Source: an uncultured Bacilli bacterium | Lineage (GTDB): Bacteria; Bacillota_I; Bacilli_A; RF39; UBA660 | Assembly (NCBI GenBank): GCA_947632405.1 | Contig: CANRPE010000001.1 | Span: 42,095-106,094 of the forward strand | Length of the DNA: 64,000 bases | Reading direction: 5' to 3' | Part shown: positions 4,750 to 63,516 of the stretch, one piece after another | How the letters are laid out: every line of letters starts with the position of its first letter | Position numbering within the stretch: the first letter of the stretch is position 1 | The notes under the pieces: model-generated | Databases searched by the model: none | Told to the model about the DNA's origin: nothing | What the model saw: the letters and a program-made list of their open reading frames with translations, nothing else | Translations under genes and position numbers: made by a program

Positions 4750-4898
4750 TGTTATCACCTTTTTATAAAAAAAGATGCACATAAATGTTGATTGTTAAAG
4801 CTGCTATCTTTCGATTCTGACTTGGTTCCAATACATTTATTGCATCTATTTAATTTTATAATATAATTTAAATTTTGGCAATGTTTTTTATTTTTATA

Positions 4899-4988: not shown

Positions 4989-7565
4989 TTATTTTTGTTC
5001 TTCTAATTCATTTTCAGTTATTTCAGAATTTTCTTCTTCTTCTTCTTCTTTTTTTACAATTGTAACTGTTGCTACTTTTTGATCATTCTTTAAATTTATT
5101 AATCTGACACCTTGAGTTGCTCTTTTTAAAGTTGATATTTGTTTTAATGGCATTTTCATAACAGTACCACTATTAGTAATAATCATAACATCTTCTTCTT
5201 CTTCATTTTTAATTGTTCTTAAAGCTACCATCATTCCATTTTTATCTGTAACATTTAAAGCTTTAACACCTTTACTTCCTCTATGTGTTAATCGATATTC
5301 TTCAATATTTGTTTTCTTTCCATATCCATTTTCTGTAACAATTAATATTAATTGATTTTTACTTACAACTTCTGCTCCTACAACTTTGCTACCATCTAAA
5401 TCCATACCTTTAACACCAGAAGCTGTTCTACCCATGGATCTTATTTCTGTTTCGATAAAACGAACCATTTTTCCATTACTTGCCCCTATTACTATTTCAT
5501 CATTACCAGTTGTTTTTCTTACACTTATTAATTCATCATCATTTTTTAAAACAATTGATATTTTTCCACTTTTTCTTATATTATCAAATTCAGCTAAATT
5601 AGTTCTTTTTACTAAACCATTTTTAGTAACAAACAATAAATATTTTTCTGATTCATTAGTTGAATCTAAATTAATTATCGAACTAATGTTTTCATCTTTA
5701 TCTAATTCTAGTAAATTAATAATTGGTAATCCTTTTGATTGTCTACTAAATTCTGGAATTTCATAACCTTTCATTCTATAAACTCTACCTTTATTTGAGA
5801 AAAATAGAAGATAATCATGTGTTTTCATGGAAATTAAATTTTCAACAAAATCTTCTTCATTAGTTGCCATTCCTTTTATACCTACACCACCTCTATTTTG
5901 AGTTTTATAAGTATCTGCTTTAATTCTTTTAATATAACCTCTATTAGTTAAAGTTACAATTATATCTTCAACAGGAATTAATGATTCATCTTCGATATAA
6001 TCAATTGCTGTCATATCAATTGTTGTTCTTCTTTCATCACTATATTTATTTTTTACCTCAGTTAATTCTGTTTTAATTATATCAAGTACTTTTTGTTCAG
6101 AAGCTAAAATGGATTTATATAATTCAATTTTTTGTAATAAATCTTTTAATTCTTCTTCAATTTTAGATCTTTCAAGACCAGTAAGTCTTCTTAATTTTAA
6201 TTCTAAAATACTATCAGTTTGTGCTTGAGATAAATTGAAACGATTCATTAAAGCTTCTCGAGCTATTTGATCAGTTTCAGATTCTTTTATAATTTTAATA
6301 ACTTCATCAATATTATCTAATGCTATTTTATATCCTTCTAAAATATGAACTCTATTTTCTGATTTTTTTAAGTCAAAGCGAGTTCTTCTAATAATTACTT
6401 CTTTCTGATGATTAATGTATTTTGAAATAATATCCTTTAATCCTAAAGTTCTTGGTGTTAAGCCATCTAACATTAAGAAAATAATACCATAATTAGTTTG
6501 GAAAGCAGTATGTTTATATAAATTATTTAATACAACTTGTGGATTAGCATCTTTTTTTAAAGTAATTGTTATTTTTACTCCGTCTTTTAAATCTGTATGA
6601 TAATCAGATATACCATCTATTATTTTATTATGAACAAGTTCTGCGACTTTATTTTTTAATTCCATTGTATTAACACCATATGGAACTTCTGTAATTACAA
6701 TTGCATTATGACCATGAATTTCTTCAATACTTGCTCTACTTCTGATTGTAATAGATCCTCTACCTGTTTCATATGCTTGTTTAATTCCTGAATTTCCTAA
6801 AATAATACCTCCTGTTGGAAAATCTGGACCTTTAATATAATTCATTAATTCTAAAGTATCAATATCTGGATTATCTATATAAGCAATACAACCATCGACA
6901 ACTTCACCTAAATTATGAGGAGGAATATTAGTTGCCATTCCAACAGCAATACCCATGGTTCCATTAACTAAAATATTTGGAAATTTAGAAGGTAATACTT
7001 TAGGTTCTTTTAATGTTTCATCAAAATTTAAGTCAAAATCTACAGTATCTTTATTAATATCTCTTAATAATTCCAAAGAAATTTTAGAAAGACGAGATTC
7101 AGTATAACGCATCGCTGCTGCTCCATCGCCTTCAATATTACCAAAGTTACCATGACCATCAATTAATAAATATCTTTGATTAAAATCTTGAGCCATTCTA
7201 ACCATTGCTTCATAAATAGAAGAATCACCATGTGGATGATAATGACCCATGACATATCCTACTGTAGTTGCTGATTTTCTATGAGGTTTTTCTGGAGTAT
7301 AACCTGATTCATACATTGACCATAAAATTCTTCTATGAACTGGTTTTAAACCATCTCTCAAATCTGGTAAAGCTCTAGAAGCAATAACACTCATAGAATA
7401 TTCAAGAAAAGAAGTTTCTACTTCATTTACAATATTATTTTCTGCTAATCTATCTCTTTCATGAAAATAACCATTAAATTGAGATGAATCTAAATGTGTA
7501 GATTCTTCTTTTTGATTTTCTGATTCATTTACATTTTCTAATTCATTTTTTTCTTCATTTTCCAT
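4989..7565 (-). CDS. gyrA: DNA gyrase subunit A
   Basis: 858 aa containing [28 protein letters not shown] with the active-site Tyr region, plus C-terminal beta-pinwheel repeats. It has about 20 extra acidic N-terminal residues and an acidic C-terminal tail. Confidence 0.95.
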
Positions 7566-7575
7566 GATAACCCTC

Positions 7576-9507
7576 CTAAATATCTAAATTTTGAACATAT
7601 CCAGCATTTTCTTCAATAAACTTTCTTCTAGGTTCTACTTCATCACCCATTAATTTAGAAAATACAGCATCAGCTGTCATACAATCATCAACTGTTATTT
7701 TTCTTAGAATTCTTTTTTCAATATCCATTGTTGTTTCATTTAATTCTTCCGCATCCATTTCTCCTAAACCTTTCATACGAGCAATTTCTGCTTTTTGTCT
7801 AACATTTTCTGGAAGTGATTGAAGATATTTTTCTTTTTCTTCTTCATTTAACACATATTTTCTAGTTTTACCATGCATAATTCTAAATAATGGTGGTTGA
7901 GCTGCATAGACATGTCCTGCTTCTACAATTGGTTTAAAAAATCTATAAAATAAAGTTAAAAGTAAAACTCTAATATGAGATCCATCAACATCGGCATCAG
8001 TCATAATAATTATTTTATCATATCTTAATTTTTCTAAGTTAAATTCTTCACCAATTCCCGTACCAAATGCAGTTATAATTGTTCTTATTTCTTCATTATT
8101 CAATGCTCTATCTAATCTATTTTTTTCAACATTCAAAATTTTTCCCCTTAAAGGTAAAATAGCTTGTGTCATAGAATCTCTACCTTTTTTTGCAGAACCT
8201 CCAGCTGAATCTCCTTCGACTATAAATATTTCAGAAACTTTTGGATCTTTACTTTTACAATCAGATAATTTTCCAAAAAAGTTTGTAACAGCTAAATCAC
8301 TTTTTCTTGTTATTTCTCTTGCTTTTTTTGCTGCATTTCTTGCTCTACAAGCTAACATTGATTTTTCTACAATTAATTTTGCTTCATCTGGATTTTCTAA
8401 TAAAAATTTTTCAAATCCGCTTGCAAAAACATTATCTGCTAATTTACGAACTTCAGAGTTTCCAAGTCTTCCTTTAGTTTGTCCTTCAAATTGTGGATTA
8501 GGATGTTTACATGAAATAATCATTGTTAAACCTTCCTTTACATCATCACCTGTCAAAGATTCGTCTTTTTCTTTTAATATTCCACTCTTTCTAGCATAAT
8601 TATTAATAACTCTTGTTAATGCTCTTTTTACTCCTTCCTCATGAGTTCCACCATCATGAGTATTTATATTATTAACAAACGAATAAATATTTTCATTATA
8701 TCCAGTATTATATTGCATTGCTACTTCAAACATAACTCCATTTTCTTCACCTTCTAAGTGAATTATATCTTCATGTATTGGAGTTTTTTCTTGATTTATA
8801 AATTTAACATATTCAGAAATACCACCTTCATAAATAAATGATTCTCCTGTAGTATCTTTTTCATCTCTATCATCACGTAATGTTAATCTTAATCCTTTAT
8901 TTAAAAAAGCTAATTCTCTTATTCTAATCATCAAAGTATTATAATCATAAATATCAGTATCAAAAATTTCAGTATCTGGTTTAAAAGTAACATATGTACC
9001 TGTTCTATTTTCTTCACAATTACCAATTACTTTTAATGGTTCTACAGTATGTCCACCATTTTCAAATCTCATATAATTAATTTTTCCATCTTTATATACT
9101 TTTACTTCTAACCACTTAGATAAAGCATTTACAACACTAGCTCCTACTCCATGAAGACCACCAGATACTTTATATCCTCCTCCACCAAATTTTCCTCCTG
9201 CATGTAAAACTGTATAAACTGTTTCTACAGTAGAAATTCCAGTTTTAGGATGAATTTCTACAGGAATACCACGTCCATCATCTTTTACAGTAATGGAATT
9301 ATCTTTATTTATAATTACTTCTATATTTTTACAATAACCTGCTAAAGCCTCATCTATTGCATTATCAACAATTTCCCATACTAAATGATGTAATCCTTTT
9401 ACATCAGTAGTACCTATATACATTCCTGGTCTTTTTCTAACAGCTTCTAATCCTTCTAATACTTGAATAGCTGATGAATCATATTTTTCTTCTACTTTTT
9501 CTTTCAT
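7576..9507 (-). CDS. gyrB: DNA gyrase subunit B
   Basis: 643 aa with a GHKL ATPase, Toprim ([10 protein letters not shown]) and a GyrB C-terminal domain. Confidence 0.95.
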
Positions 9508-9509
9508 TG

Positions 9510-10622
9510 TTATTGCCTTCTTTCCACTTCTCCATTTTTTATTTCAAAAATATAAGCATTATTTATATTTTTCTTTCTTATATTTTTTAAATCTGTAGTT
9601 GTTATGATACTTTGAATATCTTTATTTATATAATCTAATAATTTATTTCGTTTTTGAATATCCAATTCACTAAAAATATCATCTAACAATAAAACAGGAT
9701 TTTCTTGACTATATTCTTTAAATATATCTATTTCAGATAATTTAAAGGATAAAATTGCTATTTTTTGTTGACCTTGTGATCCAAATAATTTTAAATTTTT
9801 ATCATTTAAATAAAAAGAAAAATCATCTCGATGAGGTCCAAATAATGTCATTCCATAATTAAGTTCTTTTTTATAATTTTGATGAAAAATTTCTCTTAAT
9901 TTTTCTGTTAAAATTTCTGTTTCATAATTTTCAATAAAAATATTTGGCTCATATTTTACAGATAAAATTTCCTCATCTGTTATATTTTTGTAAATATTTT
10001 TAATTTTTAAGTTAATAAAATCTAAATATTTTTTTCTTTCTTGATATATTATAATAGACTTTTCAATTAATTTTTCTGTAATAATATCAAGATATTTTTT
10101 ATCTGCTAATGAGGAAGTTAATAATAATTTTAAATATTCATTTCTCATTTTTAAAATTTTATTATACTCATTGTATGTATTTAAATATTTTTTTGAAATT
10201 TGACTTAATTCAATATTAATTAAATTTCTTCTAATATGTGGGGATCCTTTTATTATTTCTAAATCTTCTGGAGTAAACATTATAATATTTAAATTAGAAA
10301 TATAATCACTAATTTTTTGAATAGATTTTTTATTAACTTTTATTTTTTTATTATTTTGATCTATATCTATTTCTAAATTATTTATAATATTATTTTTTTT
10401 TACTTTGGCACTAATTTTTGATTTTTCTTTATTAAAAGCTATTAAATTTGGTTCTACTCCATAACGATATGTTTTAGTTAAAGCTAAAACACATATACTT
10501 TCTAAAATATTTGTTTTTCCTTGAGCATTTTTTCCTATAAAAATATTCATTTTTTCATTTAAATCTAAATTTAAATGAAAATAATTTCTAAAATTGTTTA
10601 AAATTATTTTCTTAATTATCAT
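9510..10622 (-). CDS. recF: DNA replication/repair protein RecF
   Basis: 370 aa with Walker [10 protein letters not shown] and an SMC-like signature. It occupies the recF-gyrB position. Confidence 0.9.
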
Positions 10623-10734
10623 TATTCACTATAAAAGTGCTCATTTTATCACCTTTCCCCTATTTTGGTATTCCTATACATACAAGAATATTATATCATA
10701 AATAAGGCATTTATGCACTAAAAAATAGTTATTT

Positions 10735-11190
10735 CTAACTATTTTTTGAATTTTTTCGATTTCTTATAATTAAATCTAATCTAGATGCCCTTAAAACTTG
10801 ATTTTCTATCATTCTTTTTGAAACTGGAATAATAATTTTTTTATCATTATAAAAAGTTATTTCTGTTCCAATATGTTCAATTTCATTAAAACTTTTAATA
10901 TCTTTTAATGAAATCCAACTACAATCAGTTGCTGTTGGAGATGAAGTAGGAAAAAAGATTAAATTACTTGAATTTTCTACAATTATTGGTACTTTATAAT
11001 CCACATTTAAAATTGCTTTTGTTCCCTCTTTTCTCCCTTCATAAGAAGAACCAAAATACTTACAACTATAATCCATTATTTTAAATGGTGTATTATCAAT
11101 AATATACTCATTATTATCTTCTAATATCTTACTTTTGTTTCCTTCCATAGCTATAACTGCAAGTGTTCCTTCATTAATTTCATAATTCAT
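10735..11190 (-). CDS. comK: ComK-family competence transcription factor
   Basis: 151 aa that aligns along its length with B. subtilis ComK: YEINEGTLAVIA vs YEVNGATIAVLP, DYSCKYFGSSYEGRKEGT vs DRSCRFFGSSYAGRKAGT, SNLIFFPTSSPT..CSWIS vs SNQIFLFPTLSSTRPQCGWIS, NQVLRAS vs NQVYRTAWL. Confidence 0.8.
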   Translation of the reverse strand: MNYEINEGTLAVIAMEGNKSKILEDNNEYIIDNTPFKIMDYSCKYFGSSYEGRKEGTKAILNVDYKVPIIVENSSNLIFFPTSSPTATDCSWISLKDIKSFNEIEHIGTEITFYNDKKIIIPVSKRMIENQVLRASRLDLIIRNRKNSKNS

Positions 11191-11307
11191 TTTATATTTC
11201 CCCCTTTTGGAAATTTTGCGTTTCCACTTATCATATTATCACACTCCTTTGTCGTATTTAGTCGTTTTTTGTAGATTAATAAAAAAAAATCACAAATTTG
11301 TGACTTC

Positions 11308-11991
11308 TTATTTTTTTATAAATACTTTTGGTATTTCATAACTTTCAATTTCTTCTTTTGTTGGTAATTTTGCTCCATCAAAACCAAAATCTGTTATATA
11401 TATATTTCTATATTGACAATAATTTTCTGAATTTACTGCTTGTAATAAAAATTTGGCATTTTCAAGAGAAAATACAATCTTACTATAATTAGATTTTGAA
11501 TTTAATTGACTTTCTTCACTTGGTAAAATTTTTCCATCTGTATAAAATTTTCTAATATTAATAATTCTTTCAAAAAAATCTCTATAAATATAACATTCAT
11601 ATTTATTTTTAAAATCTTCAATAAAATTTATATCTGATACTTTAAGTTTTTCCAAAAGCTTTGCATTTTGTAAATATAAATCTAAAAGAGAACTATTTTC
11701 TTTAATTTTTTTCATTATTTCTAATAAACCATTTTTAGTAAAATCTATTCTTTTATATTTTTCTTTATTTTCACTTAAATATTTTATTATATTTTTATTT
11801 TTTTGTTCTAAAATAGATAAATCATTTTGTCCATTATTAAATAGAGTCTGCCTAATTAATAAATTTTGGTTTGAAATTTTCTTTAGATCTTGTAATAAAT
11901 TTAAAACAGAATCTACACCTTCATTTTTAACATATTCTAGTAAATTTTTATATCCTGTACTTTCTAATTCAATATTTGTAATTATATTCAT
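11308..11991 (-). CDS. hypothetical protein (227 aa) between dnaN and comK
   Basis: Long ORF with no motif I recognise. It sits where Bacillus has the small yaaA (S4-like) gene but is much larger. Confidence 0.5.
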   Translation of the reverse strand: MNIITNIELESTGYKNLLEYVKNEGVDSVLNLLQDLKKISNQNLLIRQTLFNNGQNDLSILEQKNKNIIKYLSENKEKYKRIDFTKNGLLEIMKKIKENSSLLDLYLQNAKLLEKLKVSDINFIEDFKNKYECYIYRDFFERIINIRKFYTDGKILPSEESQLNSKSNYSKIVFSLENAKFLLQAVNSENYCQYRNIYITDFGFDGAKLPTKEEIESYEIPKVFIKK

Positions 11992-12002
11992 TTTTAATAT
12001 TC

Positions 12003-13133
12003 CTAATAAGTTCTAATTGGTAAAACTAATTGAGTTAAAGTTTCATCTTCACTAGATTTAACTAAAATAGGTTTAATTTCTCCTACAAAATGAAGTTCAA
12101 CATTTTCTGTTTGAAAAGATTTTAAAGCTTCCATCATATATTTAGCTGAAAATGATATTCTTATATCTTCTTGATTATTTTTCTTAATTTCCATTTTTTC
12201 TTCTACTCTACCTATTTCTTGAGAAGAAGATTTTAATGTTAAAACATTTCCATTTGTTTCTAAAGTAACTATATTTTTTTCTTTATCACTAGTTAATATA
12301 CTTGCTCTATCAATAACATCATATAAATCATTTAAATTTGTATAAATAATTAGAAATTGATCATTTGGTATTAAATTAGAAGTATTTGGATAAGTTCCAT
12401 TAATTAATCTTGATTGAAATTTAATATTTTTATAAACAAATAATATTTTATTTCCAGAAATATTCATTTCTATATTTTCTTTTTCATCATCATCTAATAT
12501 TTTACTAAATTCCATAATATTATGACTTGGTATAACGATATTGTAATTTTCTTCTGTTGATTTTTCTAATTTTACTATTTTTCTTGCTAATCTATATGAA
12601 TCTGTAGAGTTACATTCTAAAATGTCCCCTACTACATTGAAATTAATTCCTGTTAAAACAGGTTTTGTTTCTTCATTTGAAGAAGCAAATGCTGTTTGAT
12701 TTACAATATTTTTAAATACTTTATTATTTATTAATAATTTATTTTTACTTTCATCTAAATTAATATTAGGATATTCTTCTTCACTAATACCATTTAAATT
12801 AAATTCACTATTTTCTGTATAGATTAATATTTTTAATTCATCAATAACTTCTATATTAATATATTTATCAGGTAATTTTCTAACTATATCTAATATATAT
12901 TTACCTTGAATAATAATAGATCCTTCTTTTTCTACTTTAATATCATCTTCATTATTAATATTAATAAAAGTTTGAATAGTAATGTCATTATCACTAGCTG
13001 TTAAAGTTAATCTTTTCTTTTTTAATTCAAATTTTATTCCTGCTAAAACAGGTATTAAATTTTTTGTAGATATAGCCTTAGATACTTTATTTAAAGCTTC
13101 TAATAATATTTCTTTTTTAATAGTTAATTTCAT
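12003..13133 (-). CDS. dnaN: DNA polymerase III beta sliding clamp
   Basis: 376 aa with a three-domain clamp pattern, directly downstream of dnaA. Confidence 0.9.
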   Translation of the reverse strand: MKLTIKKEILLEALNKVSKAISTKNLIPVLAGIKFELKKKRLTLTASDNDITIQTFININNEDDIKVEKEGSIIIQGKYILDIVRKLPDKYINIEVIDELKILIYTENSEFNLNGISEEEYPNINLDESKNKLLINNKVFKNIVNQTAFASSNEETKPVLTGINFNVVGDILECNSTDSYRLARKIVKLEKSTEENYNIVIPSHNIMEFSKILDDDEKENIEMNISGNKILFVYKNIKFQSRLINGTYPNTSNLIPNDQFLIIYTNLNDLYDVIDRASILTSDKEKNIVTLETNGNVLTLKSSSQEIGRVEEKMEIKKNNQEDIRISFSAKYMMEALKSFQTENVELHFVGEIKPILVKSSEDETLTQLVLPIRTY

Positions 13134-13261
13134 ATATATTCCTTCTTTCTTTTTTTTATATTTTTATATTATTACTGTGGAAAAAGTTAATAACTAATAT
13201 TTTTCTTATTATTTTTAGAAAAATTAAATTTTTTTATTGTGGAAAACTTGGGAAATTTTAA
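13134..13261. promoter_or_regulatory. oriC part 2: dnaA-dnaN intergenic region with DnaA boxes and an AT-rich unwinding region
   Basis: TGTGGAAAA DnaA-box variants at about 13176-13184 and 13239-13247. The adjacent T/A-rich tract 13141-13175 is a candidate DNA unwinding element. Confidence 0.6.
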
Positions 13262-14647
13262 CTAATTATTAACATTACCACTACCTATATCTTTTTTTAA
13301 TTTATCAATAATTTTTGCTAAATCTGGATTTATTTTTATTTCTTGTTCTATTTTTTCTACTGAGTGCATAACTGTAGAATGATCTTTTCCACCAAATTCT
13401 GTTCCTATTTTAGGAAATGATTCACTAGTCATATTTCTACATAGATACATTGCAATTTGTCTAGGAAAAGAAATATTTGAACTTCTTTTTTTACTTTTTA
13501 TATCTTCAACGGTAATTTGAAAATATTCTGAAACTATTTTTTGAATTCTATGAATATCATTTTTTTCTGAAATTCCTTTATTAATAAAATCTTTTAATGC
13601 TTCTATTGCTAAATCAAGTGTAATTTCTACACCACCCATGATTGTAGAATAAGCAACTAATCTAGTAATTGATCCTTCTAATTGTCTAACATCAGTACCT
13701 ATATTTGATGCAATATATTCGATAACATCATTAGGAATTTCTTTTTCAAAATTGCCAGCTGATATTTTTTTTCTAATTATTTCAGTTCTTAAAGAAAAAT
13801 CAGGAGGAAAAATATTAACTGTTAATCCCCAACAAAATCTTGTTCTTAAACGATCTTCTAATAATTTTAAATCGTCTGGAGAACGATCTGAAGATATTAT
13901 AATTTGTTTACTATCATTATATAATTTATTAAAGGTATGAAAAAATTCTTGTTGTGTTTGAGTAGCTCCTCCTAAAAATTGAATATCATCTATTATTAAA
14001 ACATCAACATTACGATATTTATTTTTAAAAAAGTCTACATAATTGAAATTAGTTCCTTGATCATCTTTTTTATTAATACCAATAAAATCTTGAATAAATT
14101 GATCACTTGTTACATATAAAACTTTTCGATTACTATTATTTGAAATATAATTTCCGATAGCGTGCATTAAATGAGTTTTTCCAAGACCACTATTTCCATA
14201 TATAAATAAAGGATTATACATATTTCCAGGATTTTCAGCTACAGATAAAGCAGCCGCATGAGCAAATTTATTACTATTTCCAACAATAAAGTTTTCAAAA
14301 GTATATTTATTTTTTAAATTTGATTGGAATGAGTTAGGTGGAACTCCTTTATCTTCTTTTTCAATTACTGTTTGCTCTTGTAAATTATTTAATTTGTCTA
14401 TTTCATCATTTAAAATAAATTCTAATTCAAAATTAGTTCCAGTAATTAAATTAAGTTTATCTATAATAAAGGAAGAATATTTGTCAGCTAAATGTTTTTT
14501 ATGGATTTGCATTGGGACAATAATAATGGCTTTACTATTTTCTAATTTATATAAATTAGTATCTTTAAACCAAGTATCATAGGCTAAACTAGAAAGTTCA
14601 TCTTTTACTTGTGTTAAAAAGTTAGCCCATAATACATCAACATTCAT
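13262..14647 (-). CDS. dnaA: chromosomal replication initiator DnaA
   Basis: 461 aa with AAA+ Walker A GNSGLGKTHL, Walker B LIIDDIQF, and a C-terminal DnaA-box binding HTH (GGKDHSTVMHS). Confidence 0.95.
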   Translation of the reverse strand: MNVDVLWANFLTQVKDELSSLAYDTWFKDTNLYKLENSKAIIIVPMQIHKKHLADKYSSFIIDKLNLITGTNFELEFILNDEIDKLNNLQEQTVIEKEDKGVPPNSFQSNLKNKYTFENFIVGNSNKFAHAAALSVAENPGNMYNPLFIYGNSGLGKTHLMHAIGNYISNNSNRKVLYVTSDQFIQDFIGINKKDDQGTNFNYVDFFKNKYRNVDVLIIDDIQFLGGATQTQQEFFHTFNKLYNDSKQIIISSDRSPDDLKLLEDRLRTRFCWGLTVNIFPPDFSLRTEIIRKKISAGNFEKEIPNDVIEYIASNIGTDVRQLEGSITRLVAYSTIMGGVEITLDLAIEALKDFINKGISEKNDIHRIQKIVSEYFQITVEDIKSKKRSSNISFPRQIAMYLCRNMTSESFPKIGTEFGGKDHSTVMHSVEKIEQEIKINPDLAKIIDKLKKDIGSGNVNN

Positions 14648-14699: not shown

Positions 14700-14880
14700 T
14701 TGAAAAAATAAATAGAAAAATCAGAATTTTTTCTTTGCACAATTATTCCACAAAATTATTAACAAACAAAAACCTAAAGAAATAAGAAAAAAAGTAAGTT
14801 TTCCACATTTTCCACAAATTTTTAATTAACATATTAAAAAAAATTATAAACAGGTCTGTGGAAATTGTGAATTATTTTAG
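14700..14880. promoter_or_regulatory. oriC part 1: DnaA-box cluster upstream of dnaA
   Basis: DnaA boxes: TATTCCACA at 14744-14752; tandem TTTTCCACA at 14799-14807 and 14808-14816; inverted TGTGGAAAT at 14858-14866; and a weaker TGTGAATTA at 14866-14874. Confidence 0.65.
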
Positions 14881-21326: not shown

Positions 21327-21345
21327 AAAGGATGTGATTTTCATT

Positions 21346-31215: not shown

Positions 31216-32598
31216 ATGCAAACAAATGAAGAAGTAGTATATTTATATTTGGACGATATTATTCCAAATCGTTTTCAACCACGTGAAGTATTTGATGAAA
31301 GACCATTAAAAGAATTAGCTGTATCTATAAAAGAACATGGAGTTATTCAACCAATTATTGTTAGAAAAGTAAATGATAAATATGAAATCATTGCTGGTGA
31401 AAGAAGATATAAAGCCTCAGCTTTAGCGGGATTGACCAAAATACCTGCCATTGTTCGCAATTTAGATGATAAAGAAACCTCAAAAGTAGCTTTACTAGAA
31501 AATTTACAAAGAAAAAATTTAAATCCAATTGAAGAAGCAAAAACTTATCAAAAAATATTAGAGTTAGACGAAATGACTCAAGAAGAATTAGCTAAGACAA
31601 TGGGAAAAAGTCAATCTGCTGTTGCTAATAAACTTCGTTTGCTTTCGTTACCAGAAGAAATTCAAGAAGCAATTTTAAAAGAAAATATTTCAGAACGTCA
31701 CGCTAGAAGTTTATTAAATCTAGATAATGCCCAAGATCAAAAAGAAATGCTAAAAAAAATAATTGATAATAAAATGACAGTAAGAGAAGTAGAGGCAGAA
31801 ATAAAATCACAAGCAAAGGATGGAAATAATGTGGAAGAAGAAAATCAAGAAAATGAATTTCAAGAAGAAACAATGGATAATTCCCAAATAGCAAAAGATA
31901 TTCCTACTGCAGAAAATTATGTTCCTATTAATCCAATAATGCCTAACTTTGATGGAGAAAATAACGATTTAAATACTCCAATTTTAACAAATATTCCAAG
32001 TATTTCAGAACAAGACACTACTGAAGATAGCCAAGAATCATCATCTGAAGGTAAATTTATAAATTTTGGAAATATAAAAAGAGGACAAATTGAAGATGAT
32101 GACGATACTGATGAAAGTGATGACTATTATGTAAAAAACAATTCAACAGTAGATATAGATAATTTAAAGTCTAATGCAAAAGATTTATCAAGTCCAGTAG
32201 CTAATGATAACCAAGGATTAGATAGTTTATTAAAGATAAATGAACCAATATCAACAAATGAAAATAATAGTGAATCTGAATTTAAATTTTTCTCTCCAGC
32301 TCGAGAAGCTTTAAAAGAAAGTGAAAAAGAAATATCAACAGAAGATTATTTCAAAAGTCCAGAGTTAATATCAGTAGATTTACCTGATATTGTTCAAACA
32401 AATAATGTAGATGGAGTATCTTTACAAGAACAAAAAGATCAAACTCCTTTTCTAAATCAAAAAGCTACTACAATTAATGATGCTGTAGAAATAATAAGAT
32501 CAGGTTTAGAAAAAGTAGAATCCATGGGATTTAAAGTAGAAAAAGATGAAATAAATTTAGAAAAATCATACCAAATAGTAATTAAAATAGAAAAATAA
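31216..32598 (+). CDS. noc: ParB/Noc-like protein with a long acidic, low-complexity C-terminal extension
   Basis: The first 200 aa form a ParB N-terminal domain plus HTH (GERRYKA, an Arg-rich box). It lies in the noc position, immediately before soj-spo0J. Residues about 200-460 are acidic and disordered (EEENQENEFQEE, DDDDTDESDDYY). Confidence 0.75.
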   Translation: MQTNEEVVYLYLDDIIPNRFQPREVFDERPLKELAVSIKEHGVIQPIIVRKVNDKYEIIAGERRYKASALAGLTKIPAIVRNLDDKETSKVALLENLQRKNLNPIEEAKTYQKILELDEMTQEELAKTMGKSQSAVANKLRLLSLPEEIQEAILKENISERHARSLLNLDNAQDQKEMLKKIIDNKMTVREVEAEIKSQAKDGNNVEEENQENEFQEETMDNSQIAKDIPTAENYVPINPIMPNFDGENNDLNTPILTNIPSISEQDTTEDSQESSSEGKFINFGNIKRGQIEDDDDTDESDDYYVKNNSTVDIDNLKSNAKDLSSPVANDNQGLDSLLKINEPISTNENNSESEFKFFSPAREALKESEKEISTEDYFKSPELISVDLPDIVQTNNVDGVSLQEQKDQTPFLNQKATTINDAVEIIRSGLEKVESMGFKVEKDEINLEKSYQIVIKIEK

Positions 32599-32692: not shown

Positions 32693-33478
32693 ATGGGAAA
32701 GATCATATCTTTAGTAAATCAAAAAGGCGGAGTAGGAAAAACAACAACAAGTATTAATCTTTCTGCATCACTAGCAGTATTAGGTAAAAAAGTATTATTG
32801 ATTGATTTAGATCCACAAGGTAATACAACAACAGGAGTTGGCATTAATAAGGGTGATATTGAACAAAGTATTTATGATGTTTTAATTCAAAAATGTAGTA
32901 TTGATCAAGCTACGATTAAAACTAAATATAAAAATTTATATATGATTCCTGCAACTATCAATTTAGCAGGACTAGATATAGAATTATTAGAAAAAAGTCA
33001 AAGTCAACCAGGATTTTCAAAAGGAGAACAATTAAAATATCATCTAAATAAAATAAAAGATAATTTTGATTTTATAATTATTGATTGTCCTCCATCATTA
33101 GGTATTATTACAACGAATGCTTTAACAGCATCTAATTCTGTTATTATTCCTGTACAATGTGAATTTTTTGCATTAGAAGGAATTATGCAATTATTAAATA
33201 CAATTATGTTAGCTCAAAAAACTTTAAATCCAAATTTAGATATTGAGGGAGTATTATTAACAATGTTAGATTCTAGAACTAATTTAGGATTTGAAGTAGT
33301 AGAAGATATTAGAAAGTTTTTTAAAGAAAGAGTATATAATACTATTATACCAAGATTAATTCGTTTGACTGAAGCTCCTTCTCATGGAGAACCAATTATT
33401 GCTTATGATCCAAAAAGTAGAGGTTCAGAAGCATACTTAAATTTAGCAAAGGAAGTGATTGAAAGAAATGGAAACTAA
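32693..33478 (+). CDS. soj: ParA/Soj chromosome partitioning ATPase
   Basis: Deviant Walker A NQKGGVGKTTT; 261 aa. Confidence 0.9.
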   Translation: MGKIISLVNQKGGVGKTTTSINLSASLAVLGKKVLLIDLDPQGNTTTGVGINKGDIEQSIYDVLIQKCSIDQATIKTKYKNLYMIPATINLAGLDIELLEKSQSQPGFSKGEQLKYHLNKIKDNFDFIIIDCPPSLGIITTNALTASNSVIIPVQCEFFALEGIMQLLNTIMLAQKTLNPNLDIEGVLLTMLDSRTNLGFEVVEDIRKFFKERVYNTIIPRLIRLTEAPSHGEPIIAYDPKSRGSEAYLNLAKEVIERNGN

Positions 33479-34361
33479 TAATGTAAAAAGAAGGGCCCTT
33501 GGTCGAGGTTTAGAAGAATTATTTAATAATGAACCTTTAGACTATAATAAAATAGAAGAAAAAATAATTACGGAAACACCAAAAGAACAAATCGTAAATG
33601 TTCCAATTTCTGAACTTCGCTCTAATCCATATCAACCTAGAAAAGTATTTGATCAAAAGGCTTTAGAGGAACTTGCAACTTCTATAAAAGAACATGGTGT
33701 TTTTCAACCAATCATTATTAAAAAAAGTATTAAAGGTTATGAAATAATTGCAGGTGAACGTAGAGTAAAAGCTTCAACTTTAGCAGGATTAAAAGAAATT
33801 CCAGCAATTATTCGTAATTTTACAGATAATGAAATGATGGAGATAGCTTTACTAGAAAATTTACAAAGAGAAAATTTAAGTGCTATAGAAGAAGCAAATG
33901 CTTATAAGAACTTATTAAACAGTTTAAATCTAACTCAAGAACAATTATCTGAAAGAATAGGAAAAAGTCGAAGTCATATTACTAATATGATTGGTTTATT
34001 GTCTTTACCAAAAACAACACAAAATTTAATTAATCAGAAAGAAATATCCATGGGACATGCTAGAGTTTTATCTAAACTAAAAGATGAAAATCAGATAAAT
34101 GAACTAACAGATAAAATTATGCAAGAAGGAATTAGTGTTAGAGAATTAGAAGAATTAACTTCAAGTAATAGTTATGAAAGAAAAAATAAGATAACTAGAT
34201 TACCTAAAACTCAAGAACAAGGACAATATCATTATTTAGAAGAAAAACTATGTGAAAAATTAGGAACTAAAGTAAAAATTAAAAGTAATAAAATGGAAAT
34301 AAAATTTACTAATGCTAATGATTTAAATCGTTTATTAGAAATAATGAATTTAGATAAATAA
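33459..34361 (+). CDS. spo0J: ParB/Spo0J chromosome partitioning protein
   Basis: 300 aa with a ParB box (GERRVKA) and HTH, overlapping soj. Confidence 0.9.
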   Translation: MKEMETNNVKRRALGRGLEELFNNEPLDYNKIEEKIITETPKEQIVNVPISELRSNPYQPRKVFDQKALEELATSIKEHGVFQPIIIKKSIKGYEIIAGERRVKASTLAGLKEIPAIIRNFTDNEMMEIALLENLQRENLSAIEEANAYKNLLNSLNLTQEQLSERIGKSRSHITNMIGLLSLPKTTQNLINQKEISMGHARVLSKLKDENQINELTDKIMQEGISVRELEELTSSNSYERKNKITRLPKTQEQGQYHYLEEKLCEKLGTKVKIKSNKMEIKFTNANDLNRLLEIMNLDK

Positions 34362-46204: not shown

Positions 46205-46780
46205 ATGAAAGTAATATTAGGAGTTTCAAATAGGCATCTTCATTTAACAAAAGAAGATTATTATCAATTATTTCAAAAAGAATCTTTAGAGAAAGTCCAT
46301 GATTTAGTTCAACCTCATCAATATTTATCTAACCAATTTGTTAGTATTCAAACACCTAAAAATAAAATAGATCATGTTAAAATTGTAGGACCATTTCGTA
46401 GTTATACTCAAGTTGAAATTTCTAAAACAGATGCTTATTTTTTAGGAATTAATCCACCTATTGTTGATTCTGGAGTATTAGATGAAGCTTCTGAAATAGA
46501 AGTTATAGGGCCATGTGGAATTATTAAGAGAAAATGTGTAATTATTCCAAATAGACATATCCATATGACTCCATTACAACAAGAAAAATTAGGTCTTAAA
46601 AATGTAGAAAAAGTTTCTGTTTTATTTTCAGGAGAAAAAGAAACTTTATTTAGTAATGTCAAATTAAAAGTAAGTCAAGAAGCCAATATTGAGCTTCATT
46701 TAGATACAGATGATGCCAATGCCGCTTTATTAAAAACAGGAGATTACGGTACAATTGTTACGAAGCAACAGAATTATTAA
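46205..46780 (+). CDS. pduL: PduL-type phosphate acyltransferase
   Basis: Duplicated PduL half-domains: VSNRHLHLTKED and IIPNRHIHMTP. Confidence 0.65.
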   Translation: MKVILGVSNRHLHLTKEDYYQLFQKESLEKVHDLVQPHQYLSNQFVSIQTPKNKIDHVKIVGPFRSYTQVEISKTDAYFLGINPPIVDSGVLDEASEIEVIGPCGIIKRKCVIIPNRHIHMTPLQQEKLGLKNVEKVSVLFSGEKETLFSNVKLKVSQEANIELHLDTDDANAALLKTGDYGTIVTKQQNY

Positions 46781-48731
46781 ACTTTTCATCAAATACAGGA
46801 TCAGCATTGGTAGGCTCTGTACCTTTTATAAAATACATAATCTTTTTTTGTGGATCTGAATCAACAGCAGGTTTACCCGAAATAGGATTTACAAGTACTT
46901 CAGAAATATTATCTGGTTTTTTATACCAATTATTTTCCTTATCTTTTAAATAATTTTCTATTGAATTTAGCCAAATATTTTGGGAATATTTATATTCACT
47001 ACTTTTTAATTCTGTATTATCATCATAACCAACCCAAACAGCAGTTAAAATATCAGGATTAAATCCTATATTCCAGTTATCTGTAGAAGTAGTTCCACTT
47101 TTTAAAGCATAAGTATGAGTCATTTTGGAAGCTATTCCAATTGCTGTAGGATAATTATAGTCTATATAGGCTTTATCATAAGTAGCCGTGAGCATATTAT
47201 TTAAAATAAAACATAAACTTTCATTTAAAACGGCAGATTTTACTTCTTTATATTCATACAAAATATTTCCATCTTTATCTTCAATTCTTTTAATAAAGTG
47301 AGGTTTTATCTTATAGCCAAGATTAGCAAAAGCAGAATAACCTGCAGCCATTTCGATAATATTAATTTCGTTAGTTCCTAATGGAAGGGATGGAACTTTT
47401 TGCAATGGAACTGTTATGCCAACTCTTTTAGCGACATTAATTAAGGCATCTTGACCTAAAAAAATATGAGTTTTTACAGCATAGATATTTTCAGAATAAG
47501 CAATTGCTGTTGCCATAGAAATTGGTTTGTTACCATATATATCATTATTATTTTTAGGAGAATAAGTTTGATTATTAGCTAAATTAAAAGTTGTTGCTTG
47601 ACTGGTAAAAGACGTTGAAGAAGTAAAACCATTTTCTAATGCTGCATAATAAAGATATGGTTTCATTGTAGAACCAACTTGTCTTTTAGAATTAGTAGCT
47701 CTATTATAAGATGATTCGTTGTAATTTTTACCCCCAGCTAAAGCAATAATTTCTCCATTTGTTGGTTTCATCAAAACCGCAGCTGTCTGAATCTTAGATT
47801 CAGTAGGAATAGCTTCTTTAATGTTTTTTTCTAGATTATTTTGAGCATCTAAATCAAGTGTAGTATATATTTTTATTCCTTTTGTTTCACTTAATGATTT
47901 AGGAATATCACTAATTGTTTCTAATTCTTTCAAGACTGCATCATGAAAATACATAATAGTTTTTTCTTGACTTTCTTGCTTTTCACCAATAATATTTAAT
48001 TTTTCATTATAAGCTTCATTTTTTTCTTCTTCAGTAATTATTTTGTTTTTAACTAAGGAGTCTAAAACCATTAATTGTCTTTTCTTTGCTGTTTTGAAAT
48101 CAACAATTGGTGAATAATTAGCAGGAGATTTTGGAATTCCTGTAATAATAGCAGCTTCCGCTAAAGTTAAATCTTTAGCACTTTTATTAAAGTAAAACTT
48201 ACTAGCATTTTCTATACCATACATACCATGACCATAATTAATAGTATTTAAATAACCTTCTAAAATTTCATCTTTAGAATAAGAATTTTCAATTCTTATG
48301 GTATACCACATTTCATCCCATTTTCTTTTCCATGTTTTCGAAAAATCCAAAAATAAATTTTTAGCGTACTGTTGAGTAATAGTAGAAGCTCCTTGTTTAG
48401 TAGAACCACTAGTAATATTAATCATACTGGCTTTTAATATTCTTAAATAATCAAATCCATGGTGTGAATAAAAATTTTTATCTTCAGTATAAATAGTAGA
48501 ATCAATTACATAATTAGAAATTTGATCTAAACTAGTCCATTTTTTAGATTCATTACCTTCAAAGAATAAATTTTTCTTATTGTCATAGACTAATATATTA
48601 TTTGCACTTCCAATCTCAAGTTTTGGACTAGAACGCAAATAAAGAAAAATCGCACCCTTAAAAACTAAGAAAACTATAAAAATTACAACTATTAATTTTG
48701 TAAAAGATTTAATAAATTTCATGCGATTCAT
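46758..48731 (-). CDS. class A penicillin-binding protein (glycosyltransferase + transpeptidase)
   Basis: An N-terminal TM; GT51 motifs EDKNFYSHHGFD and GASTITQQ; and transpeptidase motifs STMKP, SEN-like and KSGTT. Confidence 0.85.
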   Translation of the reverse strand: MNRMKFIKSFTKLIVVIFIVFLVFKGAIFLYLRSSPKLEIGSANNILVYDNKKNLFFEGNESKKWTSLDQISNYVIDSTIYTEDKNFYSHHGFDYLRILKASMINITSGSTKQGASTITQQYAKNLFLDFSKTWKRKWDEMWYTIRIENSYSKDEILEGYLNTINYGHGMYGIENASKFYFNKSAKDLTLAEAAIITGIPKSPANYSPIVDFKTAKKRQLMVLDSLVKNKIITEEEKNEAYNEKLNIIGEKQESQEKTIMYFHDAVLKELETISDIPKSLSETKGIKIYTTLDLDAQNNLEKNIKEAIPTESKIQTAAVLMKPTNGEIIALAGGKNYNESSYNRATNSKRQVGSTMKPYLYYAALENGFTSSTSFTSQATTFNLANNQTYSPKNNNDIYGNKPISMATAIAYSENIYAVKTHIFLGQDALINVAKRVGITVPLQKVPSLPLGTNEINIIEMAAGYSAFANLGYKIKPHFIKRIEDKDGNILYEYKEVKSAVLNESLCFILNNMLTATYDKAYIDYNYPTAIGIASKMTHTYALKSGTTSTDNWNIGFNPDILTAVWVGYDDNTELKSSEYKYSQNIWLNSIENYLKDKENNWYKKPDNISEVLVNPISGKPAVDSDPQKKIMYFIKGTEPTNADPVFDEKFNNSVAS

Positions 48732-53535: not shown

Positions 53536-54072
53536 GTGGTTTTTATTATGAAAAAGATAATGATATTATTATGTATATGTGTAATAATGATTTCTTTAAA
53601 TAAAGAAAAGAACGAAGTACTTATTCCTGATGAAGCAATTAGATTTAGAGTAATAGCTAATAGTAATCAAGCAAAAGATCAACAAGAAAAGAAAAAAATA
53701 GCTAAACAATTATCATCTGATATTGAAAAAGTATTAACTAAAACAAAATCTATATCAGAAGCAAGAAAAACTTTACAGAATAATATTTCTCATTTTGAAG
53801 AATGTATCAAAAAAATAGAAACAGAAGATCAATATTATGAAAAGATTAATATAGATTATGGTAATCATTATTTTCCTCAAAAAGAATATAAAGGAGTTAC
53901 TTATAAAGAAGGAGAATATGAATCTCTTGTTGTAACACTTGGGCAAGGGCAAGGAGAAAATTTTTGGTGCGTGTTATTTCCACCCCTATGTTTATTAGAA
54001 GCAGATGAACAAGAAACAGACGAAATAAAATATAGCTCCTTTATAAAAGAACTAATCGATAAGTATTTTTAA
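53536..54072 (+). CDS. spoIIR: SpoIIR-like stage II sporulation signalling protein
   Basis: A signal peptide followed by IRFRVIANSNQAKDQQEKKKIAKQL, which matches the SpoIIR IRLHVxANSDS block. Confidence 0.6.
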   Translation: MVFIMKKIMILLCICVIMISLNKEKNEVLIPDEAIRFRVIANSNQAKDQQEKKKIAKQLSSDIEKVLTKTKSISEARKTLQNNISHFEECIKKIETEDQYYEKINIDYGNHYFPQKEYKGVTYKEGEYESLVVTLGQGQGENFWCVLFPPLCLLEADEQETDEIKYSSFIKELIDKYF

Positions 54073-54646: not shown

Positions 54647-54752
54647 TTGACGAAAATACATATTTTTTCTATAATTATTTCAGGTGAGTTATTATTTGTA
54701 ACTACTTTCATAATTAGTAATAAAATATAAAGAACAAGTAGTGAGGTATAAA

Positions 54753-56006
54753 ATGAAAGCATTAGAAATAAATGGAAATCATGAATTATCAGGAACAATT
54801 AGGATAAGTGGTGCTAAAAATGCATGTGTAGCAATTCTGCCTGCGGCAATATTAGCAGATGAAGAAGTAACAATTTGTAATATTCCTGAACTTACTGATA
54901 CAGATGCTCTATGTGAGATTTTACAATCATTAAATGTAGAAGTAAAAAGAGCAAGTGAAAGTATTATTATAGATCCTTCAAAGATGAAAAATACTGAAAT
55001 TACAGAAAACTATTCTAAAAAACTAAGAGCATCCTATTATTTTATGGGAGCATTACTTGGAAAATATAAAAAAGCTGCAATGTATTTTCCTGGAGGTTGT
55101 TCTATAGGAGCAAGACCAATAAATTTACATTTAAAAGGTTTTGAAGCCTTAGGTGCAACAGTAACAAATGATAAAAATAAATATATTGTTGAGGCACAGG
55201 AACTAAAAGGAGCAAATATATATCTAGATTTTGCTTCAGTAGGAGCTACAATTAATATTATGTTAGCAGCAGTAAAAGCAAAAGGTAAAACAATAATTGA
55301 TAATGCTGCAAGAGAACCAGAAATAGTTAATATAGCTACATTTTTAAATAACATGGGTGCAAAGATAACAGGAGCAGGAACTTCTACTATTAAAATAGAA
55401 GGAGTTGAATATCTTCATACCTGTTTTCATGAAATAATCCCAGATCGTATTGAAGCTGGAACATACACTATTATTGGAGCACTATGTGGCAACAGATTAA
55501 AAATAGATAATATTATTCCAGAACATTTAGATTCTTTAATATCAAAATTAGAAGAAATAGGAGTAGATATAGAAATAGGAGCAGATTATTTAATTGTAAC
55601 TAAAAAGGAAAACTATAAACCAACTAAAATAGAAACAGCTGTATATCCTGGATTTCCCACAGACTTGCAACAACCTTTGACAGTATTACTGACACAATGT
55701 AATGGTAAAAGCAAGGTTATAGAAACTATCTGGGAAAATAGATTTATGCATATTCCTCATTTAAATAATTTAGGAGCAGATATAACAGTAAAAAATCAAA
55801 CAGCAACCATAATAGGTCCAACAAAATTAAAAGGAACAAAAGTAATAGCAACAGATTTGCGTGCAGGAGCAGCCATGATAGCAGCTGCCTTAATATCAGA
55901 AGGAACAACAGTTATTATCAATATTGAACATATCCTAAGAGGCTATGAAAATATAGTAGAAAAACTAAAAGATGTTGGTGCTAAAATAGAGAATAAAGAA
56001 ATATAA
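54753..56006 (+). CDS. murA: UDP-N-acetylglucosamine 1-carboxyvinyltransferase
   Basis: MKALEINGNHELSGTIRISGAKNA with an active-site Cys (GGCSIGARP). The ATG at 54753 follows a GTGAGGT Shine-Dalgarno. Confidence 0.9.
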   Translation: MKALEINGNHELSGTIRISGAKNACVAILPAAILADEEVTICNIPELTDTDALCEILQSLNVEVKRASESIIIDPSKMKNTEITENYSKKLRASYYFMGALLGKYKKAAMYFPGGCSIGARPINLHLKGFEALGATVTNDKNKYIVEAQELKGANIYLDFASVGATINIMLAAVKAKGKTIIDNAAREPEIVNIATFLNNMGAKITGAGTSTIKIEGVEYLHTCFHEIIPDRIEAGTYTIIGALCGNRLKIDNIIPEHLDSLISKLEEIGVDIEIGADYLIVTKKENYKPTKIETAVYPGFPTDLQQPLTVLLTQCNGKSKVIETIWENRFMHIPHLNNLGADITVKNQTATIIGPTKLKGTKVIATDLRAGAAMIAAALISEGTTVIINIEHILRGYENIVEKLKDVGAKIENKEI

Positions 56007-56042: not shown

Positions 56043-56753
56043 ATGAAAAAATATTTAAAAATAATTTTTCTATTTATAATAATTATTGCTATTTATATTA
56101 TCTATAATCAAGAAAATAAAACAAAGATTACTTATATTTCAATAGGCGATGGTTTTGCTGTTGGTTTAAATTCATATCAAGAACCATCATATGGATATGA
56201 TGATTATTTAAAAGATGAACTTAGTCAAAAAAATCTCTTAAATAACTATTATTCATCTTTTTCTTATAATGATATGAGAATAAGTGATTTGCATAAAGAT
56301 TTACTATTAAATGCACATGATGAAGACAATAATAATATTAGACAAGCATTAAGAGAATCAAATCTTTTAACTATCTCTGTTGGAATAAATGACTTAATTT
56401 ATCAAATGACTATAAATTCACCTCTTACAGAAACAAATATAAATAAAATATTAACAGAAATTGTGGATAATTTGGCTATCACTATCGATGAAATTAAACA
56501 TTATTATAAAAATGATATCTATTTAGTAGGTTATTACAATTTTTATCCACATAATTCTGTGGAAAGAAAAATTTTAGATAAATTAAATAGTGAATATAAG
56601 GAATATTGTACTAAAAATAATATCTATTTTGTGGATAATGAAAATTTAAATTCAAATTTAGATCAATATTTAGATAATCCTAATAGTATTTACCCAAATG
56701 TAAGAGGCTATAAAAAAATTTATTCAAATATATCTTCTAAATTAAATTATTGA
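56043..56753 (+). CDS. SGNH/GDSL-fold protein, membrane-anchored, with catalytic residues apparently substituted
   Basis: An N-terminal TM. Block I reads IGDGF (Ser replaced by Gly), block III is GIND, and the block V-like segment SIYPN has Tyr where His is expected. Confidence 0.45.
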   Translation: MKKYLKIIFLFIIIIAIYIIYNQENKTKITYISIGDGFAVGLNSYQEPSYGYDDYLKDELSQKNLLNNYYSSFSYNDMRISDLHKDLLLNAHDEDNNNIRQALRESNLLTISVGINDLIYQMTINSPLTETNINKILTEIVDNLAITIDEIKHYYKNDIYLVGYYNFYPHNSVERKILDKLNSEYKEYCTKNNIYFVDNENLNSNLDQYLDNPNSIYPNVRGYKKIYSNISSKLNY

Positions 56754-57227: not shown

Positions 57228-57305
57228 AAGTTTGAAAACTTGTTATACTAATAACGCATTGAATTACTATGACTTAAAAAAGTCATGGCGGAAGGAGAGA
57301 AGAAT

Positions 57306-58924: not shown

Positions 58925-59067
58925 TATGTCTTTTTTTTTGAAATTTTAGCATAATATTAACTAAAGATTTTTATTTATTTAAGAAACTTACAAAAAAATT
59001 AAAAAAAAACTATAAAACTTTAAAAATATGGTAAAATATATAATGATTAGAAAAGGAAGTGATTTTG

Positions 59068-63303: not shown

Positions 63304-63308
63304 AAAAA

Positions 63309-63338
63309 TCCTGAATTTGTAATTTCAGGATTTTTATT
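63309..63338. terminator. bidirectional hairpin between the convergent kinase gene and agrD
   Basis: Stem TCCTGAA/TTCAGGA with loop TTTGTAA, A-rich upstream and T-rich downstream. Confidence 0.6.
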
Positions 63339-63343
63339 TATAA

Positions 63344-63466
63344 TTAATCATCAAAACTATTTAATGCTTTTGGTTCATCAAGAACAAACCATACACATCC
63401 CATGCTAGCAGCTCCTGTAGCAAGTAATGCGATTGCACTAACGAATGCAGCAATTTTCTTTGTCAT
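63344..63466 (-). CDS. agrD: AgrD-like autoinducing peptide precursor (40 aa)
   Basis: My translation gives MTKKIAAFVSAIALLATGAASMGCVWFVLDEPKALNSFDD. An AAGGAG Shine-Dalgarno lies 7 nt upstream. It sits directly downstream of agrB. The Cys-X4 then acidic-Pro tail (CVWFV-LDEPK) matches the AgrD pattern (Listeria CFMFV-YEPK, S. aureus CDFIM-DEVEVPK). It is not in the ORF track. Confidence 0.75.
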   Translation of the reverse strand: MTKKIAAFVSAIALLATGAASMGCVWFVLDEPKALNSFDD

Positions 63467-63516
63467 ACTTCTACTCCTTTCTTCTTCTTATTTATTATAA
63501 ATATCAATAATGATAT

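Follow-up and report, generated by a model that had tools for sequence, protein, structure and literature searches.

The regulation of ComK is a textbook example of bistable cell-fate control, and it has been studied almost only in Bacillus. The ComK proteins of Staphylococcus and Listeria belong to the same Pfam family and have about 180-190 amino acids (aa); they are not known to be origin-linked, and their role is narrower or differently wired. In Bacillus subtilis, phosphorylated Spo0A (Spo0A~P) binds the comK promoter (PcomK) directly via several boxes, timing competence (PMC3297582). Here we analyse a ComK-family gene (hereafter comK) that lies between dnaN and recF, near the replication origin, in a 64-kb stretch of DNA from an uncultured Bacilli bacterium (contig CANRPE010000001.1; hereafter the window, to which all positions refer). 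A large group of uncultured gut Bacilli keeps this stripped-down, tail-less ComK at the same, invariant origin-side address. The reading that we favour, with a probability of roughly 60%, is that of a minimal ComK, fixed in the dnaN-recF interval as a transcription unit of its own, insulated by a terminator and preceded by phased boxes that we read as Spo0A~P sites, the 227-aa gene beside it (u227) being unrelated. The primary data are the window and the flanking sequence of related comK loci; labels of the form L### denote related or metagenome contigs.

A core-domain ComK beside the replication origin

An initial annotation of the window had placed comK and u227 between dnaN and recF near the origin, with no yaaA or remB there, and this holds. 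The list of open reading frames (ORFs) has the two genes on the minus strand at exactly the coordinates then given, 10735-11190 (151 aa) and 11308-11991 (227 aa), within the following cluster:

14799-14816 (upstream of dnaA), 13176-13184 and 13238-13246 (downstream): oriC DnaA boxes, TTTTCCACA
13262..14647, minus strand: dnaA (Pfam Bac_DnaA)
12003..13133, minus strand: dnaN, sliding clamp (three DNA_pol3_beta domains: N-terminal, central and C-terminal)
11308..11991, minus strand: u227, orphan of 227 aa (ORF list, no family match)
10735..11190, minus strand: short-form ComK-family gene, 151 aa (Pfam, B. subtilis alignment)
9510..10622, minus strand: recF (SMC_N)
7576..9507, minus strand: gyrB (ORF list)
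4989..7565, minus strand: gyrA (ORF list)

On the plus strand, from 15.1 kb, are found rnpA, yidC, jag, mnmE, mnmG and rsmG. The guanine-plus-cytosine (GC) content of the genome is about 22%. The GC skew switches sign near 14.7-15.0 kb, and DnaA-box-like TTTTCCACA sites at 13176, 13238, 14799 and 14808 flank dnaA; these two signals near dnaA put the comK/u227 pair about 3.5 kb from oriC. No S4-domain (yaaA) ORF is present between dnaN and recF, an interval that contains only u227 and comK, and remB is absent, as the recF stop (9510) and the gyrB start (9507) are only 2 nt apart. No S4-domain or DUF721 ORF was seen in relatives with enlarged intervals either.

The 151-aa gene encodes a ComK-family protein reduced to the core domain, a predicted DNA-binding transcription factor. 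A hidden Markov model search matched it to Pfam ComK (PF06338) with E=4.1e-46 and 156.9 bits (cut-off 22.3), from position 3 to position 150 of the 152 of the model, that is, over the whole domain. When aligned with B. subtilis ComK (COMK_BACSU, 192 aa, confirmed by exact look-up), it shows 39% identity over 147 residues (E=2e-37), its residues 2-145 corresponding to residues 11-157. The family assignment of the initial annotation is thus borne out, and so is its remark that the protein is shorter than Bacillus ComK (151 versus 192 aa) and lacks the C-terminal region, since the alignment ends 35 residues early. In B. subtilis ComK the PF06338 domain extends from residue 10 to residue 158, from which it follows that the window protein is essentially a bare ComK domain: it ends at about B. 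subtilis residue 160 and is devoid of the last ~35 and the first 9 Bacillus residues. Among the motifs conserved in the ComK family alignment are SC(K/R)(Y/F)FGSSY.GRK and FFPT, and 53 positions are invariant among 15 homologues, all of 144-157 aa. The protein database holds at least 867 relatives and, among the matches listed, almost all are again 144-157 aa long. A search of PDB by sequence with the ComK protein gave no match and hence no solved ComK structure.

What the missing part does in Bacillus bears on what can be expected of the short form. The C-terminal tail of B. subtilis ComK carries the MecA-recognition peptide. According to the passage of the B. coagulans ComK paper that cites Susanna et al. 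2006, C-terminal truncations of 25-35 aa abolish the induction of comG by B. subtilis ComK, and the same paper boxes the ComK residues that interact with MecA (PMC3536758). Given its missing C-terminal region, the short form cannot be assumed to act, or to be regulated, like Bacillus ComK.

ComK is a fixed resident of the dnaN-recF interval

We compared 80 related comK loci, one genome per species scanned, in which ComK is 46-77% identical to that of the window and the gene order was read by tblastn with the window proteins. The order dnaA-dnaN-comK-recF-gyrB-gyrA holds throughout the 80 species-level genomes: the contig covers both flanks in 73 of them, and the other seven are cut by the contig end and have the expected neighbour on the remaining side. 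The 80 loci come from metagenome-assembled genomes (MAGs) labelled uncultured Bacilli, Tenericutes, Erysipelotrichaceae, Clostridium sp. CAG:417/CAG:451 and Candidatus Onthousia, names that presumably correspond to the GTDB order RFN20 and its neighbours. Three homologues that were looked up (65-69% identical) all show the same six genes in the same order, and a search that started from L087, the most divergent locus (ComK 48% identical), led to a further clade with an identical gene order. Four more distant low-GC contigs, found solely by the DNA box pattern described below, also have ComK directly after dnaN, with a DnaA about 46% and a ComK 31-45% identical to those of the window; two of the four (L107 and L141) show both flanks, recF following comK, and the other two stop inside or just after comK with dnaA-dnaN upstream. 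The intergenic distances vary within narrow limits, being about 100-170 nt on the dnaN side of comK and about 108-135 nt on the recF side.

As this order recurs in all 80 relatives, in the further clade and in four distant genomes, the position of comK is ancestral and not a local replacement, and in these uncultured Bacilli of the gut, with their low GC content, the gene is fixed between dnaN and recF. The initial annotation had regarded yaaA and remB as replaced here by comK and u227. That comK occupies the slot of yaaA in Bacillus stands; that the replacement is a local one does not, the comparison of dnaN-recF intervals having shown the order to be fixed in all 80 relatives. Nor does a case of misassigned paralogy apply, in which the same insertion would be ubiquitous alongside yaaA/remB, since the order occurs without yaaA or remB. 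In a full-text literature search combining ComK, dnaN and recF, no paper suggested this arrangement by its title or abstract.

An invariant linkage to dnaN and recF over such deep divergence could also mean that the short ComK no longer controls DNA uptake and has been kept there as a regulator of replication, repair or growth arrest, of a K-state-like kind. A protein that lacks the C-terminal part on which comG activation depends in B. subtilis, in a 64-kb window whose scanned ORFs include no competence genes, would suit this explanation. Conserved order near oriC is, however, common for unrelated genes and is no proof of a functional link, and the short form has kept a core domain close to that of the competence regulator. 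We consider a role outside competence unlikely.

A separate transcription unit with a conserved control region

The dnaN-comK interval was aligned for 17 genomes, and 80 unique upstream regions were inspected. They share a fixed order of elements, namely a hairpin and T-run terminator, two or three TTCGACA direct repeats, an extended -10 (TGn plus hexamer), a stem-loop, a GGGGG Shine-Dalgarno (SD) sequence and the ATG. In the window these elements are:

11280..11309, minus strand: intrinsic terminator after u227, hairpin GUCACAAAUUUGUGAU followed by nine U (U9), -9.4 kcal/mol
11250..11266, minus strand: two 10-bp-phased boxes, AACGACT-N3-TACGACA, degenerate TTCGACA copies
11235..11243, minus strand: extended -10 of comK, TGtGATAAT, a TGn-type -10 conserved in the aligned relatives
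11208..11226, minus strand: stem-loop UGGAAA...UUUCCA of the 5' untranslated region (5' UTR), just upstream of the SD
11200-11204, minus strand: SD sequence, GGGGG

The terminator has a z-score of -3.4, and none of 200 shuffled sequences folds equally well; in the relatives, an equivalent hairpin and T-run is situated directly 3' of dnaN. A TTCGACA box with at most one mismatch is present in 78 of the 80 unique comK upstream regions, with a box-to-box spacing of exclusively 10 or 20 bp, and 49 of these 78 loci have a perfect sense-strand box at -60 to -75 from the ATG. The background, estimated on about 0.86 Mb of flanking sequence, is 0.015 perfect boxes and 0.0025 tandem pairs per 130 nt. 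The loci L095, L097 and L099 each have three boxes that are perfect and in phase, the array ending about 9 nt ahead of the extended -10 TG, and in the window the CGAC-N6-CGAC core occurs once in 64 kb, for an expectation of 0.00. Of 66 unique relatives, most have the stem-loop (mean z=-2.15), and its sequence differs by clade with the pairing kept (GGAAA/UUUCC, GAAAAC/GUUUUC, AAGCAA/UUGCUU and AAACAU/AUGUUU); such fully compensated changes argue that the mRNA is structured at its 5' end, and we infer that this hairpin is a stabiliser or a translation-control element. Rfam yielded nothing credible on either of the two intergenic regions.

These data bear directly on the possibility that comK is simply part of an origin-proximal dnaA-dnaN-recF unit, its level following DnaA autoregulation and replication-dependent gene dosage. 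The gene is indeed about 3.5 kb from oriC and shares its strand with dnaA, dnaN and recF; that every genome examined keeps the position suggests selection on location. Yet a conserved hairpin and T-run terminator precedes comK, which has its own conserved extended -10 and 5' UTR; recF too has an invariant promoter of its own; and the dnaN-comK interval contains no DnaA box, the sole near-match being one site with one mismatch within coding sequence. With a terminator before it and a promoter and 5' UTR of its own, comK cannot be regarded as a mere passenger of the dnaA operon, and we consider control through the operon and dosage quite improbable. The DnaA-linked regulation proposed in the initial annotation is not supported either, the gene having instead its own promoter with TTCGACA boxes.

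Spo0A as the candidate factor at the boxes

The heptamer TGTCGAA is the published consensus of the Spo0A box (PMC5295017). TTCGACA is its reverse complement and matches it at seven positions of seven. We interpret the phased TTCGACA boxes as Spo0A~P sites and, by analogy with B. subtilis, comK is probably under Spo0A control. The window itself contains spoIIR (53536-54072, E=2.5e-37), together with genes for a class A penicillin-binding protein (46758-48731), MurA (54741-56006) and MreB (59059-60060), and this set indicates that the organism is walled and keeps at least some sporulation genes. The presence of spo0A has been reported in the walled families of RFN20 (PMC10868615), our placement of the lineage in that order being presumptive.

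As an independent test, a metagenome collection was scanned for the triple phased box. In Firmicutes-like contigs, the triple box was found upstream of ComK four more times, and triple phased TTCGACA-N3 also precedes spoVS (E=6e-36), soj/parA and two genes for soluble HisKA/HATPase kinases (L138, L108, L128 and L147; GC content 26%-64%). Judged by these sequence matches, the genes fit, short of proof, a sporulation-initiation regulon, as candidate Spo0A-type members.

A factor other than Spo0A may of course bind the repeats, either the short ComK itself, autoregulating through a diverged site, or another response regulator that recognises direct repeats. Autoregulation is a hallmark of B. subtilis comK (PMC3297582), the comK promoter of the window has no canonical AAAA-N5-TTTT box, the boxes persist in very divergent genomes, and an agr-type LytTR regulator is encoded in the window. 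Against this, Bacillus ComK recognises A/T tracts and not a CGAC core (PMC3536758). The match of the heptamer to the Spo0A consensus is perfect, and in other contigs of Firmicutes-like character the triple box also stands upstream of spoVS and of orphan kinase genes. The 10-bp phasing resembles that of the tandem 0A boxes of the B. subtilis abrB promoter, whereas LytTR regulators use 9-bp repeats about 21 bp apart. Another factor at the boxes is, in our opinion, somewhat doubtful.

Other classes of element were tried for the TTCGACA repeats and rejected: a -35 element, a CodY or LexA palindrome, a streptococcal cin-box and a LytTR site all fail on spacing, orientation or conserved dyad symmetry. 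Many relatives also have a perfect TGTCGAA or TTCGACA within the first 25 codons of dnaA (codons 1-2 and 22); as these encode the conserved N-V-E and F-D-T, they were not counted as evidence. In about 20 relatives, including two Candidatus Onthousia MAGs, a perfect TGTCGAA is found among the DnaA boxes upstream of dnaA, about 107 nt away (e.g., L039, L043 and L045; L044, 3075-3090). It recalls the Spo0A boxes that overlap DnaA boxes in the B. subtilis oriC, and could equally be a variant DnaA box.

Several points weigh against a Spo0A-controlled ComK with a role in competence. The boxes of the window are degenerate, TACGACA having one mismatch and AACGACT three. Many of the triple-box matches in the metagenome collection are plain tandem repeats in unrelated contigs, and the pattern alone is thus not specific. 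Some of the relatives may belong to families reported to be without spo0A, in spite of which their boxes persist. The boxes lie at about -20 to -50, a position that fits repression as readily as activation. Boxes so placed can activate, as in spoIIG, and a repressing example is site R1 of PcomK. As for the protein, its AlphaFold2 (AF2) model, built on a 15-sequence alignment, is poor, with a predicted local distance difference test (pLDDT) of 59.5; it provides no independent support and was too poor for a fold search. No late competence gene was found among the ~55 ORFs scanned in the 64-kb window. Paired AAAA-N5-TTTT motifs (ComK boxes) occur in the 64 kb at one match per spacing for about 0.8 expected, none of them near comK, a count of little power at 22% GC and without the target genes. 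A competence role of the short form is not established, as neither a late com gene nor an enrichment in ComK boxes was found in the window, and the truncations abolish comG induction in B. subtilis.

The 227-aa gene is unrelated to comK

The other gene of the pair, which the initial annotation rightly described as belonging to no recognisable family, is an orphan from a small uncharacterised family, unrelated to comK and at this spot in this genome only. Its product has no match in Pfam, NCBIfam, PHROG, PADLOC or PDB. The AF2 model is confident (pLDDT 84.8, predicted template modelling score 0.83), with a helical N-terminal domain and a seven-strand C-terminal beta-sandwich, and Foldseek found nothing significant for this predicted fold in PDB or BFVD. 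A word-based search retrieved eight homologues besides the window's own sequence, and an exhaustive profile search 98 clusters at 50% identity among 1.84 billion proteins; among 61 members of the family scanned, none shares a Pfam family with the others.

None of the 80 relatives possesses u227, which was found only in contigs from the same organism. The three closest placeable homologues (41-45% identity) are all away from comK, one in a secG/VanZ-like gap, one with a WYL regulator and an inositol phosphatase as neighbours, and one downstream of parAB and abgT. The joint insertion of comK and u227 envisaged in the initial annotation can thus be dismissed, u227 being absent from the relatives and its homologues residing in unrelated contexts; the idea of a one-off insertion is corrected, and the orphan is separated from ComK. 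The u227 start is 11 nt past the dnaN stop with no terminator between, and the gene is probably co-transcribed with dnaN. It was probably inserted into the tail of the dnaA-dnaN transcript, between the dnaN stop and the terminator; no target-site duplication was apparent in the alignment of the junctions.

Two adjacent genes on the same strand, one of them with no other recognisable function, might be partners, u227 acting for instance as an adaptor or anti-adaptor in place of MecA/ComS. All 80 relatives that keep comK lack u227, however, its homologues are never beside comK, the terminator separates the two genes, and other genomes have different orphan ORFs at the same spot; such a partnership is already largely refuted and must be considered extremely improbable. 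The orphan ORFs or extra DNA on one or the other side of comK in other species are different and unrelated, and are found in L034 (6634-7431), L046, L038 (6665-6892) and L066 (5502-5995 and 6456-6780). The ORF in L034 and L046 is a coiled-coil one of 265 aa, located between comK and recF; that in L038 has 75 aa. These different orphans suggest that the flanks of comK tolerate insertions and that small accessory genes land there repeatedly.

A proposed mechanism

Under the favoured reading of an insulated comK with Spo0A-type boxes, read-through from dnaA-dnaN (in the window, dnaA-dnaN-u227) would be halted at the intrinsic terminator, and transcription would restart at the extended -10 promoter of comK. 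Spo0A~P bound to the boxes at about -20 to -50 would set comK transcription, by activating or by repressing it. By analogy with B. subtilis, ComK production would then be gated by the state of the Spo0A phosphorelay, at stationary phase or sporulation entry, rather than by DnaA. The 5' stem-loop and the strong SD would set the stability and the translation of the comK mRNA, and the product would bind DNA and control a regulon, of competence genes or others. Having none of the 35 C-terminal residues of the Bacillus protein, this ComK is not expected to be controlled via that region and may activate transcription differently. Proximity to the origin could possibly add a gene-dosage component.

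One might speculate further that an order-level lineage captured a core-only ComK into the dnaA-dnaN-recF-gyrBA cluster under phased Spo0A boxes, thereby coupling the Spo0A switch to a ComK programme, maybe of replication, repair or growth arrest and not of DNA uptake. We hold this to be distinctly unlikely. If true, it would mean that the link from Spo0A to ComK predates the Bacillus competence circuit and persists without MecA/ComS control or ComK-box autoregulation.

The recF leader and other features of the window

Downstream of comK, recF has a promoter and leader of its own:

10612..10698, minus strand: recF promoter and leader (TG 10698-10697, TATAAT 10695-10690, hairpin GUAU-AGGA-AUAC 10679-10668, mini-ORF 10644-10612)

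This leader is more conserved than the adjoining coding sequence, and its extended -10, TATGATATAAT, is invariant. The hairpin has 4 bp, with GGA in the loop, and one compensatory change, U-A to C-G, in L088. It is followed by a strong SD and by a mini-ORF of 8-10 codons (10 in the window). The overlap of the mini-ORF stop with the ATG of recF suggests that the two are translationally coupled. The leader is absent in the most distant loci (L088 and L090) and has no Rfam match. Speculatively, its GGA-loop hairpin and GGA-rich SD may be said to resemble CsrA-type sites.

Rfam identified the small signal recognition particle (SRP) RNA at 4763-4854 (minus strand), between tadA and dnaX, which is its classical position, and an L31-Firmicutes ribosomal leader at 57267-57297 (plus strand). 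A type VII secretion-like cluster extends over 21334-28833 (plus strand) and encodes a DUF4176 protein (96 aa), an 850-aa protein with no Pfam match and a 1529-aa FtsK/SpoIIIE-family ATPase (EssC-like); small ORFs with no Pfam matches follow it at 28817-30868. Two ParB-family genes, of 460 aa (31216-32598, possibly Noc-like with an extension) and 300 aa (33459-34361), flank a ParA/Soj gene at 32693-33478. Three perfect DnaA boxes of the form TTATCCACA lie within 180 bp (56462-56638), inside a GDSL-lipase-like ORF (56043-56753), and a fourth is found at 52486; this TTATCCACA cluster is about 40 kb from oriC, which itself uses TTTTCCACA variants. Finally, an agr-type quorum-sensing locus at 61275-63987 comprises a LytTR regulator (61275-62033), a GHKL kinase (62014-63303) and, on the opposite strand, AgrB (63517-63987).

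Comparison with known systems

The gene order of the window is otherwise the classical one, rpmH-rnpA-yidC-jag-mnmE on one side and dnaA-dnaN-...-recF-gyrB-gyrA-tadA-SRP RNA-dnaX-ybaB-recR on the other. Compared with the dnaA-dnaN-yaaA-recF-(remB)-gyrB-gyrA cluster of Bacillus and Staphylococcus, comK sits in the yaaA (rlbA) slot, a positional replacement with no homology to the S4-domain protein, and remB (yaaB) is simply absent. The product resembles B. subtilis ComK over the ComK domain from end to end and shares with it the SC(K/R)(Y/F)FGSSY.GRK and FFPT motifs, but the gene is origin-linked between dnaN and recF, whereas the Bacillus gene is at a separate locus, and its promoter, unlike the Bacillus one, has no AAAA-N5-TTTT boxes.

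With PcomK of B. subtilis, the control region has in common a Spo0A heptamer directly upstream of a comK gene. The layout differs: two or three head-to-tail boxes at about -20 to -50 here, and there five dispersed activating or repressing sites, interleaved with ComK and Rok sites. With the tandem 0A boxes of abrB/spoIIG-type promoters, the arrangement shares direct repeats spaced by one helical turn. The ComK family itself is known; what differs in this lineage is the truncated architecture, the strict origin synteny over a deep lineage, and the phased Spo0A-type boxes without ComK boxes. If the Spo0A assignment is right, the link from Spo0A to ComK would be of earlier origin and wider occurrence than the Bacillus-specific layers (MecA/ComS, Rok and autoregulation), and these loci would make a simple system in which the function of a minimal ComK can be tested.

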